64,000 bases of DNA from NCBI GenBank assembly GCA_024679065.1, contig JAGIQG010000019.1, forward strand, positions 14,570,001-14,634,000. Direction: 5' to 3'. Numbering within the stretch: the stretch's first letter is position 1; each line of letters begins with the position of its first letter. This document shows, piece after piece, positions 5,510 to 12,499 of this stretch. This DNA is from Sphyrna mokarran. Lineage: Eukaryota. A program made the translations under genes and the position numbers. Under the pieces are notes generated by a model, which saw only the letters and a program-made list of their open reading frames with translations, was not told the origin of the DNA and did no database searches.

Positions 5510-6638
5510 ACAAAAATACCATATGGTCAAACAGGCCATCTAAAATGGCAATTTGTAAAGCACTCTGGGACAATTGGGCAAAAACTAAAATGACAGGCTC
5601 CAGCCTAAAAGACAGAGATAAACAGGCTGCAACCCAACAAATGAATACACAGGATATGGGTCATCTCCAGGACAAAAGAGGCCTTCTGATCAAACTGGGT
5701 TGTTTACCAGACGTAGGGGTGCTGTAACCCCTTATTTGGGAGGGAGGTGTGTACTCTATGTGCCCCCAGCACCTGCAGACAGTGCCATTGGACACACACC
5801 GAAGGATTGGTGTGGCTGCACCTGATTGGACTTCATTGATCAGGGTGATTGGCAATGGCCAAAAAGGGCATGAAATCCAACGGGACATCAAGGACACTGT
5901 GCACCCAAGAATCTCTCTCTCTCTCTCTGAAACTATGAATGAGCTACAACAACGGTGACCATCACCAGCGACAACCAGCATAAGGACAACCACAGCCGAC
6001 AAGGAAGGAAGACCGGAGCCAGAGTTCCAGACCAGACCAAAGGAGCAGACTACACAGAAGATGACCGAGACCAGCGCACAGATAAAGGCCAATATCTGCT
6101 TGGGTACTTGCCAGTTATGCAAAGTTAAAGTCATCTATAGGACTTGAACAGCACGATAGCACAGTGGTTAGCACTGCTGCTTTACAACTCCAGGGACCTG
6201 GATTCGATTCCTGGCTCAGGTCACTGACTGTTTGCACATTCTCCTCATGTCTGTGTAGGTTTCTTCCAGGTGCTCTGGTTTCCTCCCACAGTCCAAAGAT
6301 GTGCAGGTTAAGTTGATTGACCATGCTAAAATTGCCCCTTAATGCCCTGGGATGTGTAGGTTAGAGGAATTAGTGGGTAAATATGTAGGGATATGGGGAT
6401 AGGACCTGGTTGGGATTGTGGTCAGTGCTGACTTGATGGGCCAAAGGGCCTCTTTCTGCGCTGCAGAGTTCTATGACTCTAACTCTAGTATTTTCTGTAA
6501 AGATAACTTACAGTTGATTGGATGGGTGATTATTGATTTTGTGTCTTAAATAAATATCGGTTGTACTAACAAGACGTCTACTCGCAGTTATTTGTCCACC
6601 GTATAAGGATTAAAACAGACTATGCAGCAGGCACAACA
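5510..6638 (+). mobile_element. 5' LTR of ERV (5' boundary uncertain; interrupted by SINE)
   Basis: Ends ...gcacaACA two bases before a PBS; AATAAA near 6548; immediately upstream of gag. Confidence 0.7.
6148..6485 (+). mobile_element. HE1-like SINE inserted in the ERV LTR
   Basis: cagcacgatagcacagtggttagcactgctgc head, V-core, CR1-type tail. Confidence 0.9.
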
Positions 6639-6640
6639 AC

Positions 6641-6658
6641 TGGCAACTCCGCCAGGAC
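6641..6658 (+). promoter_or_regulatory. Primer-binding site, tRNA-Arg(TCT)
   Basis: TGGCAACTCCGCCAGGAC vs recalled vertebrate tRNA-Arg-TCT complement TGGCGACTCCGCCGGGAC (16/18, both mismatches CG>CA). Confidence 0.8.
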
Positions 6659-6932
6659 ATCAACAAGAAGTAACTTTGTTGCTCCGATATCAAATACCGC
6701 AGAATCTATATTAAACTATTATTTAAAACTCAGAGCCAACAGGTGAAAACTCCTTACTGGACAAATAACTGCTTTCGAGAAATTGTTTATTGTGCATGCA
6801 TTTTTACTAACAAGGAGGATACAATAAACTTCATAGGTTTGCATTAGAATCCAGAGGGATTAGGACAGGAATGTAGTCCAAAGCTGTACCCATAGTCCAA
6901 TCAACTCCCTACCCCTTGTCATTGAATATAGG

Positions 6933-8684
6933 ATGACAGGAAATAGCATAGAGACTGAGAAGTGTTTCATATGGGAAACAAAAATCAGGGAATTTATTAA
7001 GAAGAAAGAGTGATCCCTATGGGCACAATCTTGTGACAACACTGAGACGGGATTGGGATCCCTAGGGCAGAAGTACTGGGATGATCTAAGGAAAGTTCAG
7101 GGAAAACGGGCAGACAAAAATGAGAAAGAAATTGCCATTGTGAGCTGTTGAGGACAGCTGTTCGGAACAGAAAAAGAATTAATCACAGTTCATAAGGAAC
7201 TGGAATTGAAGCAGGCACAGGAGGAAAAGGAGGAGATTAAGAAACTAAGGGAACAACAGCAGGAGAGGATAGAACAAATAAGAGCCAAAAAGGACAGAGA
7301 GATAGATGAATTAAGGAGAACTAACCAGGCAAATTTATTACTTTTGGACAATTTTCAAACCTGGCATGAGAGAGCCTATCAAGACACCCAACGACAGTCT
7401 TGGCCAAAGATGAAGCTGAGCAGGCAGTAACCCAATTGCAAGCCAAGTGCTCTGCTCTACAGGCGGCAATAAAAACCTACATCAAGTCAGTAAACAACAG
7501 AGACAGGCAACTGCTGACCACTCCAAATGCCAGTGAGAAATTTCATGGCTGGAATTTCGATTATCGATTCAGAATGGATTTATGTGCACCTTCAGGACAG
7601 TAGAGAAAGAGGAGATAGAGAATGCGGATTGGGGAGAGTTAAAGGAGAATGCTAGACTTCACACAAACCAAAGATTGGGGTCCACCCCACCTTATACCCA
7701 CTGCGCCCCCAGATTCATCTCCAGTACTGACGTACATCGGGTAGGAGAGTCTCAGGGCCCACTTGTTACATATACAACCCCGTTTATAGTGGCTCAATTG
7801 GCCGAAATCACAAATAAAGTCATAACTTTTGAATCATCAGCGATCTGCACAATTCCTTTGAGGATGTTAGGCAGCAGAAGATAACGCATAGGTTAGATGA
7901 AAGGGAAGAGGTAAAGCAGACAGTCATGAGCTTAAGCAAGTCTGTATGGTCTGCCCTGCCAGCCCCTCAAAATATTGGGGAAGGAACCTTAAATAAAATG
8001 AAGGAAGCAATGTTGACTGCAGTAGAATTTAATAAAGGGGATCTTGTAGAGGGGTTAAATAAATGTAGACAGAGGAAAGGGGAACATCCGACTGCCTTTG
8101 CCAGTTGTTTGTGGATCCACTTCACAGGAGGATATGGGGAATTAGATTGGGCTAGATTAAATGAGGCTGATTCATCCAAATGGACTTGGACATTAGTGTC
8201 GCACACAACAGAGGAAGGCAAGAAAGTCTGCGCTAATTTTGACCCCACAGAGATCACACAAAATGAAGACTGCTTCTTAGATGCTTAGCTTGAGTCTGGG
8301 AACAGGAAGTTCAGGGACCCCCAATGTCATGGTCAGAAAGGAAGGCGAGCATGCTTCCCATGAGGGCTACTCAGGGTCTGGTATAGAGAAACGAGGGTAG
8401 ATGGGATCACCAAAACCAGAGAGATATAGCTCCACCTTTCACAGAGATAGAGGGACATGTTTTAATTGCAGGCAGCCAGGACACTTTGCGCGAGGTTGTA
8501 GGAGATCCCCGCTGCCGTACACACGGACCCTGAGACTGAGAACTACTGGCTCCTCTAGTTAGAACAGCTCCTCGATACAAGAGAGAACACCGTCCACCAC
8601 CGATTGAAAGTCCTGGTCATCCCATGCATACCATAAGCACAAGCCCTGTATCCAACTGTCCCTGCCAAAGGAACCCTAGATTGA
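6933..8684 (+). pseudogene. gag: ERV gag, disrupted
   Basis: ATG 6933; coiled-coil segment KQAQEEKEEIKKLREQQQERIEQ; capsid-like ORF 7926-8288; zinc knuckle CFNCRQPGHFARGC (CX2CX4HX4C) at 8458-8499; multiple stops and frameshifts. Confidence 0.85.
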
Positions 8685-9080
8685 CAGTGCCTGGCTTCCC
8701 GAACTTGGATCTGTAGCGCCACGTGGCATAGTGTAGGGAGACCCTAGTTAACCGGTGAGGTAACAGGCCACTTTATAGAATTCCTTTGGGATACCAGAGG
8801 CTCCCAAACTATCTTGAATGTATCAAAATTAAAAACAGACCTCCCTTGGTCAACTGTGGGCACAATTACACTCAGTGGATTCACAGGACACATGCAGAAG
8901 GGATGCATTACAAGCTATGTACAGGTCTGTCTACGTAACATAGTGTGTGACCATCTGGTGGTGTTCGTTGACCTTCCCTCAAGCGCTGAACATATCCTGA
9001 GGTCCGATTATATGAATAAATGTAATCTTTCATTTGATCCAACAAATCTGGATCTGTATTTGGCAGATGGCTACGATTAG
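8685..9080 (+). pseudogene. pro: ERV aspartic protease, disrupted
   Basis: EFLWDT(R)GSQT at 8778-8810 (DTG mutated), ITLSGFTG flap, HIL(R)SDYM = ILGxD motif. Confidence 0.85.
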
Positions 9081-9975
9081 CAGAGCTCCATCAATCATTC
9101 CAGTCAGGACATATGCTAATAGGATTAACACAATAGGGGAATTCTGGTTTGATCCCTTAGCGATTAGCAGTGATCCAGCCATCAGGGACATGCTTCAAAG
9201 AAACAACGGGGAGCTTGCGCAGCATAAACATAATTGTGGCCAGATACCTGGGGAGGTGTTTACTGAAGGGCCGAATCTGAAACCACAGAGACAATACGGT
9301 TTCGCCAAACAGTCAGAGGGGGTGGTAGCCAAACTCATTGATAGTCTATTACAGCAGGGGTTGTTGAGATAAGTGGCATCCACAAATAACAGCCTGTGAA
9401 GAAGGTAGATGGATCATGGAGGTTAACGGTTGACTACTGGGAATTAAATAAGGTTACCCCACTCTTGGCCCCCATAGTAGCCACAAGCCCCGTCACCATG
9501 ATGAGATGTGCGCAAAATTTTTCATGGTGCTAGATATTAGTAATGGCTTCTGGTCCATCTCTTTAAACCGGTCTTGTCTATACAAGTTTGTCTTTACTTT
9601 CCAAGGACAGCAATACAGTTGGATTTGTCTATCACAGGGTTTCCATAATTCGCCATTCATCTTTCACATGCGACTAGCTAGCGGACTAGAAAAATTTTCC
9701 TGACCCAAGTGCTTGTAGACAATTTATTGTTACAGACTAACACCAAAGAGGAGCAGATAACGTTGCTGGATGAATTACTCGCACTGCTCCACTCATTAGG
9801 CTGCAAAGTCTACCTGAAAAAGACCCAAATTTTGCAGCCCAAGGGTTATATACCTAGGTACAGTGATTACCCATGGGAAGAGCGAGATTGAACAGAAAAG
9901 AATACGCTACAGAGTGCACCTTCCGCTACCCTGACACATGTGTGCCTTTGATCTTTCCTAGGTCTAGTAGACAGT
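9034..9975 (+). pseudogene. pol: ERV reverse transcriptase, disrupted; RNase H and integrase core absent
   Basis: PQRQYG, VKKVDGSWRLTVDYWELNK, LDISNGFWSI, QYSWICLSQGFHNSP, VDNLLL (decayed YVDD), SFLGLV. Confidence 0.9.
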
Positions 9976-10400
9976 GCAAAAGCCTGATACAATATGCAGC
10001 TGCTCTGCATTCCAAATAACACTGAGAATTTTATTTCCAGTGCCAGTCATCCAATTTCAGAGCCAAATCGGGGTGCAAGAAAATCAGCATTCAAACTGAT
10101 TAAGCGGAAATGGAGGAGAACAAAAGCATCTTTCACAGTGGTTGTGATTTGTGCCAGAATCACTGATTGTACTCTAAGCAAAAATTCTAACTCACTATTC
10201 TTGTATTCATTTACTGCAGAATAGATGCAGTGCGGCCCTGTTATAAGAAAGAGTGAAAAAAGAAGGGTCCAACGAGTCATTGCATTATATCCAAATTCAC
10301 GCTAAATCAGGGCGTGTAAAATCGGGGCTTCACTACATTAATTGCGATAACAGCAGAAACTATATTGATCTCTTCAGGACAGTGATGGACGACAACAGAG

Positions 10401-11940
10401 ATGCAACCTACGATCTACCTCACCGGACTCATCATCGGGATAAGCATACAGGACATTCCAAGCAAGATGAACTTGTGATATCCAGGTTTGCCCCACCTGA
10501 CATGGGGGAATGTGAGATGGGTGTGTTACGGGCGCACTCTGAGTATAATGTTTGAATGTAATAACCAATGGCTGGTATACAAAAAAACCAAATGGCAGTT
10601 CAGCTGAATGTTATCTGAGTGTCACCATAGAAAAGGACTGGTAGGGATTTTCAAATAATGGGTGCTCTGAAATTGGATGACTGGCCAACAGCCCAGAGAA
10701 AGGATTAGAGCTCGGGCAGCGGTGTCCTGGGACACTTGTAGAGGGGGACTTTGCATTGAATGAAATAAGAACTGGACCGAAGTCAATCCCAGACCAATCC
10801 CCCTCGAATTGTTCTGAAGCCAACCCCGGTCCACAGAATGGATTGATGCTAAAACACACAGGGAATATCTTTATGACAACATCCACCACAAATTGGTACC
10901 TGTGGTGTGTGAATATCGCTGGGACTCAACTACCAGAATGGTGCACTCCCCAGTTTAAGAGATTATGCCTCTTCTTAACTTGCAGATTATTAGGAAGGAA
11001 GGTAGGAATGGATGAAAGACAGGAAAAATCCATGAGGGAGTCAGTCAATGACATGACCACAGCATACGGGCAGGGATAGCTATCAATGCCCTTGATTTAG
11101 CTGACAATAAACTTAGAGTTCTGACCCAACAGGTTAAGTAGACACTAATTTTATTAATGAGGACAATCAGCAAGATGCTGAAGGGGAGCTGACTGGGAAC
11201 ACAGCCAGCAGCCACATGGTCGCTGTATTAGAAGGATCACGCCAAAATAATCAAACAAATTAGAGGATGATCACCGACTACAGAACCGGACTTCATGTAG
11301 TGCATACGGACAGTCGATGGTAGTACAGCTAAGGGAAAACCTAGAGCAGGTACGCAGAGGACAGGTTCTGTCTTGGATTAGTAATCGACAGATGGAACAT
11401 CTATTTACACCTAAGGAACACCCTAGTTAACTGCTGCTGGATGCGACAGTTGACCAAGTCTGGTTCAATGACAACTGCAAAGGGACTCCAGGGAAAGCCT
11501 TAGGAATGATTGTAGTGTTCTCCATTATCACTGATGACTGGGTCGGACCGAGGGTCTTAGAAGTGGAGAATATAGAGACTATCCATGAGGATATGTGGAT
11601 AGGGCATGATGGCACTTTACCACACGCAATGGAGAAAAAAGTGATGCTCATAGGCACTACTCTGGACAGATGTCAACAAATTGATGAAATAATCACACGC
11701 CCGTACCCAGTTTACTTAAATGAGCATGCACTATGTGGCTTCACACCAAACACCAGCCTAAATTGCACAGTAGAAGCTTATAGCCTGGACACAGACATAA
11801 CTCGGGTAGCTTACAAGGGAGCAGGGAGATACTGTCTCACCACCTCCCTCAAACAATATCAGTATGGTGCGACATATTGTAACATTACAAACATTACATT
11901 CTGCATCAAACCAGATATACCAGTCAGGCTGGGCCTCATT
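10401..11940 (+). pseudogene. env: ERV env-like glycoprotein, disrupted, 3'-truncated
   Basis: Acceptor-like tctcttcag (~10369-10377); hydrophobic start MQPTIYLTGLIIGISI; fusion-peptide-like SVNDMTTAYG/GIAINALDL then heptad-like stretch; Cys-rich ORF 11506-11940 with N-glycosylation sequons (NTS, NCT, NIT). Confidence 0.7.
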
Positions 11941-12499
11941 CATAAAATATTAAAGTTTACCACTCTCTGGCTGGGAAAAGAAATGAGATACGAGTGGAGT
12001 CTTTTAAATAATAAATACTTCATACTTCTACGAACCAACATTAGATGCAATATTTCATGTTTTTGTCATAAGGTTCGACTTGTTAATGGTCAGACGAATA
12101 GTGCTTCAGGCAGCAAGGAAAAGGCACACGTTTTTCCATCAGTTCCGTCATTATATTTTAGTCTGAGAACAATAGTGTGTTCCATTTAAAGGAAAACTCT
12201 CAATAAAACCAGTTGTACTAAAGCAAGATAAGAATTCATTGCTGCAAATGTTCCAATCACCCATAACAAAGACAAGGACTAGAAAAGGTAATGTTCATTT
12301 TGCTTTTTTTTACAAGGTGGTATTTACTAAATGGCTGCTTCTTCACTCTGTCAGTTTGCTGTGTGCCAGTGACATCACTTCTAGTGAATATATGAATATA
12401 CTAATACATAGAGCTTAGTGTTGCTATCAATCAATATGAATACACATATATCAATCATGTCACTCCCTCCAGTGGAAAATCCTCATCTTATTCCTCCCC

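Follow-up and report, generated by a model that had tools for sequence, protein, structure and literature searches.

Organization of the provirus

The 64-kb window (the whole stretch of DNA analyzed here) carries an endogenous retrovirus (ERV), in a probable shark genome as first proposed, whose LTR-PBS-gag-pro-RT-gap-env order can be read directly from the sequence. Each part of this order, as proposed in an earlier sequence-only reading, was located within the window:

5522..6638, plus strand: 5′ LTR, matching both ends of sibling copies at 70–89%
6150..6475, plus strand: SINE-like repeat inside the 5′ LTR, missing from sibling LTRs
6641..6658, plus strand: primer-binding site (PBS) of tRNA-Arg(UCU) type, 16 of 18 bases equal to the 3′ complement of the genome's tRNA genes
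6930..8560, plus strand: broken gag with a charged helical stretch, a probable capsid and one CCHC knuckle
~7800–8290, plus strand: probable capsid, assigned by position alone
8748..9030, plus strand: decayed aspartic protease, from its motif and a weak tblastn match to SnRV Pol residues 14–46 (E=0.12)
9290..9970, plus strand: broken RT, cut in the thumb (RVT_1 E=9e-9)
9971..10042, plus strand: pol-env junction remnant, 76–92% to siblings, with RT far upstream in those copies
10043..10336, no strand assigned: 294 bases of unexplained origin, without a match in sibling loci
10337..11942, plus strand: broken, 3′-truncated env, predicted F-type (class Ib), 44% to residues 71–541 of a 685-aa frame from the sister sublineage

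The boundaries of the 5′ LTR were set from siblings whose flanks diverge there; without the SINE-like insert it measures ~790 bases, ends in CA and has a decayed first dinucleotide. The SINE-like repeat has 23 matches across the window and is dated to after integration because sibling LTRs do not carry it. Neither a second LTR nor any tRNA or Rfam match was found in the window. Among the genomic tRNA genes, ARAGORN called one tRNA-Arg(tct) and gave an intron-bearing second gene the wrong label.

The charged helical stretch of gag (~7150–7500) drew only sub-threshold Pfam matches to unrelated families, while the capsid region had no Pfam match and phmmer scores that were weak at best. A single CCHC knuckle lies at 8458–8499 (zf-CCHC E=1.6e-5), in keeping with the coiled coil and single knuckle described before; outside the knuckle, comparison of Gag with SnRV, lokiretroviruses (loki) and other elements gave nothing significant. 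The protease motif, previously recognized as W-D-T-(G), reads W-D-T-R-G at 8787–8801 and is therefore decayed; the protease of coelacanth P0001 aligns with the sibling copies. In RT, LDISNGFWS (9530–9556) and QGFHNSP (9635–9655) are present as first read, and the decayed (Y)VDD site is now VDN (9715–9723). RT identity is 52% to P0001, 41% to SnRV and 30–33% to loki-type proteins.

In three siblings, the bases aligned to positions 9970 and 9971 are separated by 1,322, 2,728 and 174 bases, and the RT-env gap is therefore a deletion. Judged from this sequence comparison, tether, RNase H and integrase have been deleted from the window copy. Its env is without the C-terminal heptad and transmembrane part, and no 3′ LTR follows. 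The window copy is thus a dead, deleted provirus without the capacity to make virus.

Related copies in the genome

Of 99 candidates, 40 RT copies were scored, and the 39 others share 76–84% identity, which places the provirus far beyond chance. The search for fuller copies that had been suggested for this locus was successful: siblings hold tether, RNase H, integrase and two LTRs, so that the plan LTR-PBS-gag-pro-pol(RT, tether, RNase H, IN)-env-LTR is present at the family level and deleted in the window copy. The siblings also carry a second RNase H with the tether, a feature that every retrovirus has and that is therefore not diagnostic of loki. Pairwise dN/dS for env was 0.09–0.45 in all 10 pairs compared.

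Viral contigs contained neither a family locus nor a loki locus. Metagenome contigs contained no env match; six Pol matches at 28–33% were seen there. Contigs of four sequencing runs held many divergent pieces across env, from which orthology is not deducible, and no RNA run was listed among the sequencing runs carrying matches. The two long env frames had no exact match in the protein collection.

Phylogenetic analysis of RT and integrase

The main RT tree comprised 64 rows and was built without foamy, ERV-L/ERV-S, alpha/beta or Odin rows; the integrase tree was built without a CGIN1 row. Reference rows were matched by eye to the alignment of the loki paper (P0044 as SnRV, P0049 as lamprey loki), and a 10,688-base viral contig matches P0044 at 99%. 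The shark family forms a clade of its own (100/99) inside the canonical retroviruses (100/99) and is excluded from the loki clade (100/99). P0037 is its sister (99/95), followed by coelacanth and frog elements (84/92). A quick mixture-model tree of 89 rows agrees in topology, with a support of 99 for the canonical clade including the family. Integrase likewise recovers loki (100/99) without the family, which joins the remaining sequences (92/90), and an AU test rejects a forced clade of loki and the family (p=0.016). Gamma and epsilon rows sit in a 100/99 branch outside which the family falls, as it falls outside Ty3/Gypsy. It was not directly grouped with SnRV in the 64-row tree, where the backbone is open or has support below 95.

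At the sampling used, these trees refute the loki-like or loki-neighboring placement originally given to the element: the RT phylogeny that had been proposed as a check did not recover a loki grouping. The exclusion of gamma/epsilon elements and Gypsy, made in the same reading, is confirmed. The RT motifs, described there as spumavirus-like rather than gamma/epsilon-like, follow the pattern of the SnRV row and are unlike the foamy and foamy-like ERV (FLERV) rows examined. By sequence, the polymerase is that of a canonical retrovirus of class III / SnRV grade, near the coelacanth and frog elements.

The envelope is predicted to be of F type

A natural 685-aa env frame is present in the sister sublineage. 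At the family level, Env has a signal-like start, a basic cleavage site near residue 225, a helix-beta-helix layout downstream of that site and one anchor near 628–659; no CX6CC, CXXC or ISD motif was found in it. In the ESM Atlas, the top cluster scored 0.95 with 211 of 256 features, and 18% of its members carry Fusion_gly; this was at a recognition value of 1521, which is below the level where a high score counts as strong, and a 183-aa piece gave a best score of 0.79 and no lead. Both structural models are poor, with a pLDDT of 38 for the first (229 aa) and 37 for the second. Foldseek on a weak model ranked fish paramyxovirus F0 first (E=3.4e-7, with TM-scores of 0.12–0.14), followed by nidovirus and torovirus spikes. 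Fold searches against the PDB were uninformative for the first model and gave no match at E<=0.001 for the second, where only generic coiled coils (Z<7) appeared. No F-family (PF00523) match came from sequence searches of Pfam and the PDB, for which env pieces, the 685-aa frame and two env alignments served as queries, and a word search for Env relatives found 0 among 7,898 candidates.

With SnRV Env, HHalign gave 86% (E=4.9e-6) over 284 collinear columns, against 0.06% with SnRV Gag. The same likeness is weak by BLASTP (E=0.012) and hmmsearch (E=0.29, rank 1 of 502 including shuffles). By eye, the Env motifs are also collinear with those of the published Loki-Bsp Env. Given the missing gamma-type motifs, the F-like layout and the F-type top matches in the Atlas and, from a weak model, in Foldseek, the F-protein-like Env proposed at the outset likely holds, and we predict that the family Env is an F-type fusion protein.

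Origin of the pol-env combination

The locus is probably one inactive, partly deleted member of an old multi-copy ERV family that combined a canonical class III/SnRV-grade pol with a predicted F-type Env. The ancestor would have used tRNA-Arg as the primer of reverse transcription, relied on its own integrase for integration and entered cells by means of a furin-cleaved, F-like trimer triggered by pH or receptor, with a fusion peptide, long heptad, cysteine-rich beta core, second heptad and one anchor. Germ-line spread may have proceeded mainly through reinfection, as env is under purifying selection between copies. Later, most of pol and the 3′ end would have been deleted from the window copy, and the SINE inserted into it.

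That the element is a chondrichthyan lokiretrovirus, or belongs to a lineage sister to loki, we consider next to untenable. The F-like Env with its Loki-Bsp-like motif order, the dual RNase H of the siblings and the nearest proteins being labeled NYNRIN-like (loki integrase is CGIN1/NYNRIN-related) speak for it, but both trees and the AU test place the family elsewhere, RT is closer to SnRV and class III-grade proteins (41–52%) than to loki-type ones, its motif is unlike that of loki, and dual RNase H is shared by all retroviruses. An identity as a foamy-like ERV of fish or sharks (clade Tu, with an Env known to be F-related) is a little less remote and still highly improbable. Foamy-like ERVs are reportedly present in cartilaginous fish, and the RT trees were built without foamy rows; against this, the closest intact relative (P0176) scores 156–160 bits to MLV-type RT and 118–135 to foamy RT, the RT motifs are unlike every foamy and FLERV row examined, Gag has a CCHC knuckle, and Env has no sequence match to the solved foamy Env. 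The structural report on foamy Env describes it as structurally F-like (PMC11468914).

A recombinant, in which a class III-grade pol took up the env of an RNA virus or a lokiretrovirus and the F-type Env is a local gain, not a deeply inherited trait, carries more weight and yet appears unlikely. Env swaps are frequent in retroviruses, and the likeness to SnRV Env is distant. SnRV, however, falls on the family's side of the RT tree and has a collinear Env, so capture would require two events or one old one; moreover, the same env type occurs in both sublineages of the genome. We favor the canonical family with a predicted F-type Env. That F-type (class Ib) Env across the base of the retroviruses (loki, foamy, the shark family and SnRV) is ancestral, with gamma/beta-type Env a later replacement, is a conjecture to which we give somewhat less than even odds. 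A sister-sublineage copy with an unbroken env frame and a broken pol may represent an F-type gene kept by the host.

In itself the provirus is dead and unremarkable, and it adds no shark to the host range of lokiretroviruses; the key point is that a canonical pol occurs together with a predicted F-type Env. SnRV is a living, cultured virus classed in Orthoretrovirinae. If this pairing is true, its occurrence at the class III / SnRV grade favors inheritance of F-type Env from a common ancestor, which SnRV allows to be tested, and F-type Env is more widespread among retroviruses than usually described. An F-like env alone is then insufficient to identify a lokiretrovirus. In the loki paper, loki Env had no overall similarity to that of retroviruses, and four origin scenarios were left undecided (PMC7947760); the foamy Env paper places orthoretroviral Env in a class apart from F (PMC11468914). 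SnRV-related ERVs are already known from elephant shark; in the literature searched we found no statement of F-type Env for SnRV, class III shark ERVs or otherwise on the canonical side, and a prior description is possible.

Comparison with known systems

Odin elements, the sister group of loki, have no env, unlike the shark family. Mammalian foamy Gag is without a CCHC knuckle. The family shares with foamy viruses the F-related Env fold class, predicted in its case (PMC11468914), and differs in its CCHC Gag, RT motifs, lower RT scores and single-anchor Env. With lokiretroviruses (PMC7947760) it shares an F-like Env, dual RNase H and the LTR-gag-pol-env plan; it differs in its RT and integrase position, in its RT motif, in that no smc-like gene was seen, and in an extra ~130-residue N-terminal region ahead of the F-like core of Env. 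In the alignment of that paper, the three loki rows examined have PFGYxNSP, and LDISNGFWS...QGFHxSP is the SnRV row (PMC7947760). None of the 6 chondrichthyan genomes in the loki screen was positive (PMC7947760), a result that the shark element leaves unchanged.

The nearest RT relatives (46–52%) are the coelacanth and frog "NYNRIN-like" Pol proteins (P0001, P0029–P0032) and P0037, which have the same PR-RT-tether-RNase H-IN order and form a separate lineage. SnRV and SnRV-related ERVs belong to clade Huo of class III (PMC6001957, PMC12193657). CmiERV lineage I of elephant shark is, in the part of its description available, which assigns its Env to no type, such an SnRV-related ERV with gag-pol-env, and resembles the family in occurring in a cartilaginous fish (PMC4422223). 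The family is not sister to SnRV in the RT trees and has no accessory frames that we saw; its tRNA-Arg(UCU) site has another sequence than the SnRV site, and its Env (~685 aa, short tail) contrasts with the much longer, long-tailed SnRV frame. Both nevertheless have an Arg-type-looking primer site (we take that of SnRV to be Arg), a coiled-coil Gag with one CCHC, the RT motif LDISNGFWS...QGFHxSP at 41% RT identity, and distantly similar Env proteins with a long post-cleavage subunit.

Structure and decay of the provirus

The sequence-only reading had listed the parts of a provirus, each of which was found in the sequence, and the provirus as such is real. Its 5' features are as follows.

5522–6638: LTR, about 790 bases long and interrupted by a SINE-like insert; limits placed where the flanks of sibling copies in the same genome diverge
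6150–6475: SINE-like repeat inside the LTR
6641–6658: primer site, 16 of 18 bases matching a genomic tRNA-Arg(UCU)

At L082:1500–1586 (minus strand) lies a tRNA that contains an intron and whose sequence gives the anticodon UCU; ARAGORN in its bacterial setting labels it tRNA-Pyl.

Stops and frame changes break gag, pro and RT alike, and the Pfam matches are to the CCHC knuckle and RT. The tether, RNase H and integrase have been lost after 9970, env stops at 11942, short of its anchor, and no second LTR lies within the 64-kb window; this copy is without coding potential for a virus. The remnant of pol is separated from env by 294 bases (10043–10336) that occur once in the window and have no match in the sibling loci.

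Placement of the polymerase

Among named proteins, the nearest to the family Pol are “NYNRIN-like” Pol proteins of coelacanth and frogs, and the window RT (X at breaks) shares 52% identity with the coelacanth protein P0001, 41% with snakehead retrovirus (SnRV) and 30–33% with lokiretrovirus-type proteins. Reference proteins were identified via rows of the supplementary alignment of PMC7947760 (P0044, SnRV Pol; P0049, lamprey lokiretrovirus), and 13 proteins carrying the lokiretrovirus motif formed the lokiretrovirus set. The RT tree, built like the integrase tree without foamy, ERV-L/S, alpha/beta or Odin rows, retained 64 of about 170 rows after near-duplicates, short rows and most Gypsy and gamma rows were dropped. 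It resolved a lokiretrovirus clade (100/99) and a clade of canonical retroviruses including the family (100/99); the family itself (100/99) is sister to the protein P0037 (99/95), followed by elements of coelacanth and frogs (84/92). A quick tree of 89 rows, computed with a mixture model, agreed, and the integrase tree (55 rows) again separated the family from lokiretroviruses. In neither the RT nor the integrase tree are the family and SnRV sisters.

The proposed loki-like provirus therefore does not stand: the family falls outside lokiretroviruses in both trees, a forced joint clade is 50 log units worse (AU p=0.016), and the RT motif picked out earlier is that of the SnRV row in the supplement of PMC7947760, not the PFGYxNSP read in the three lokiretrovirus rows on the same page. 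A foamy assignment is also improbable: the closest intact relative (P0176) scores 156–160 bits to MLV-type RT versus 118–135 to foamy RT, and foamy RT motifs differ from those of the family. The family is a new lineage within a known grade of retroviruses.

P0001, P0029–P0032 and P0036 (coelacanth, frogs, turtles) go under the database names “NYNRIN-like” or “Gypsy retrotransposon integrase-like”, yet each is the Pol of an ERV in the family's grade. Several fish proteins with labels of this kind carry the lokiretrovirus motif.

Family size, age and spread

Searches gave 39 further copies of the RT stretch at 76–84% identity (40 scored of 99 candidates) and 43 matches to the env stretch (40 scored of 152), and a protein search gave 154 (150 scored of 556). 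The sequence-only reading had suggested a search for copies with RNase H and integrase, and such siblings are present in the same genome: among 10 sibling places retrieved, Pfam recognized RT, tether and integrase domains in one, and tblastn located RNase H and integrase regions in several.

LTR pairs, comparable in 5 of the 10 siblings, diverge by K2P 0.11–0.21, corresponding to 25–48 million years at the mammalian rate used in PMC7947760. The rate that PMC4422223 assumes for sharks would make this ten times longer, so that the age can be stated only as old. There is also a second sublineage, about 65% similar at the DNA level. Many pieces of its env, at 85–95%, occur in contigs of four sequencing runs (four organisms, four studies), and the family is therefore common to related species.

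The same genome, of 2.77 Gb, holds, at 40 places, a separate ERV family related to P0158, an ERV protein of the shark Mustelus asterias, with decayed matches at 47–83%; in the RT tree this lineage lies between SnRV and class I ERVs.

The envelope

One second-sublineage provirus (within L046) has a natural, unbroken env frame of 685 aa (L040:952–3006, minus strand), while its pol carries about 6–8 stops and several frame changes. The window env covers residues 71–541 of this frame at 44% identity. The start of the 685-aa Env is signal-like; the protein has a basic site for cleavage near 225, one anchor near 628–659, 19 cysteines and 8 sequons, and lacks ISD, CXXC and CX6CC motifs. The intact frame possibly reflects co-option. 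Youth or chance may also account for it, since it was selected post hoc as the longest frame in 150 scored matches and long env frames are present in close copies too. Across env copies, all 10 of the 10 pairs had a dN/dS of 0.09–0.45, in keeping with reinfection as the mode of spread.

Several comparisons make it very probable that the family Env is F-type, that is, paramyxovirus F-like. The alignment of the family Env profile with that of SnRV spans 284 columns and brings the cleavage sites into register (86%, E=4.9e-6), against 0.06% for the SnRV Gag control; BLASTP and hmmsearch gave weak matches to SnRV Env. By eye, the published Loki-Bsp Env has the same blocks in the same order. In the ESM Atlas, the top cluster (0.95) had Fusion_gly on 18% of members, a match of low recognition value; clusters of Fusion_gly/Baculo_F and of coronavirus S2 came next. 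The AlphaFold model, a poor one (pLDDT 37), places a helix, a beta region and a helix after the cleavage site, and its best viral fold match was the F0 of a fish paramyxovirus (E=3.4e-7, TM 0.12), with spikes of a nidovirus and torovirus kind ranking next. Searched by sequence against Pfam and PDB, the family Env had no match, and PDB fold searches with the model were unspecific. The SnRV env frame (L084:6131–9535) aligns distantly to the family Env and is without a Pfam fusion-protein match.

Proposed history and comparison with known retroviruses

Reverse transcription would have been primed by tRNA-Arg and insertion mediated by integrase, with cell entry presumably via a furin-cleaved F-type trimer and germ-line spread through reinfection. 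A deletion and a SINE insertion would later have altered the window copy.

Lokiretroviruses were reported from 0 of 6 chondrichthyan genomes, their Env having no overall similarity to retroviral Env (PMC7947760); lineage I of elephant-shark CmiERV groups with SnRV (PMC4422223); the SnRV-related clade Huo has ERVs of class III among its members and is present in all major vertebrate lineages (PMC6001957); and SnRV counts as an unclassified orthoretrovirus, ERVs related to it occurring in fish, amphibians, reptiles and birds (PMC12193657). A catshark “Spuma” ERV in which no Env was detected is possibly related (PMC10699275), foamy Env is F-like and orthoretroviral Env assigned to another class (PMC11468914), and lokiretroviruses are named as the vertebrate F-type case, with vertebrate ERVs deferred (10.1101/2023.10.26.564294). 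Passages of PMC9040795, PMC10435555, PMC12287698, PMC13709493, PMC12583693, PMC11521997, PMC8227577 and 10.1101/2021.11.23.469661 contain no report of a canonical pol paired with an F-type Env, and within a partial coverage of the literature no published report of an F-type Env was found for SnRV or shark class III ERVs. The interest of the family lies in this pairing, a predicted F-type Env with a canonical pol, which it has distantly in common with SnRV.
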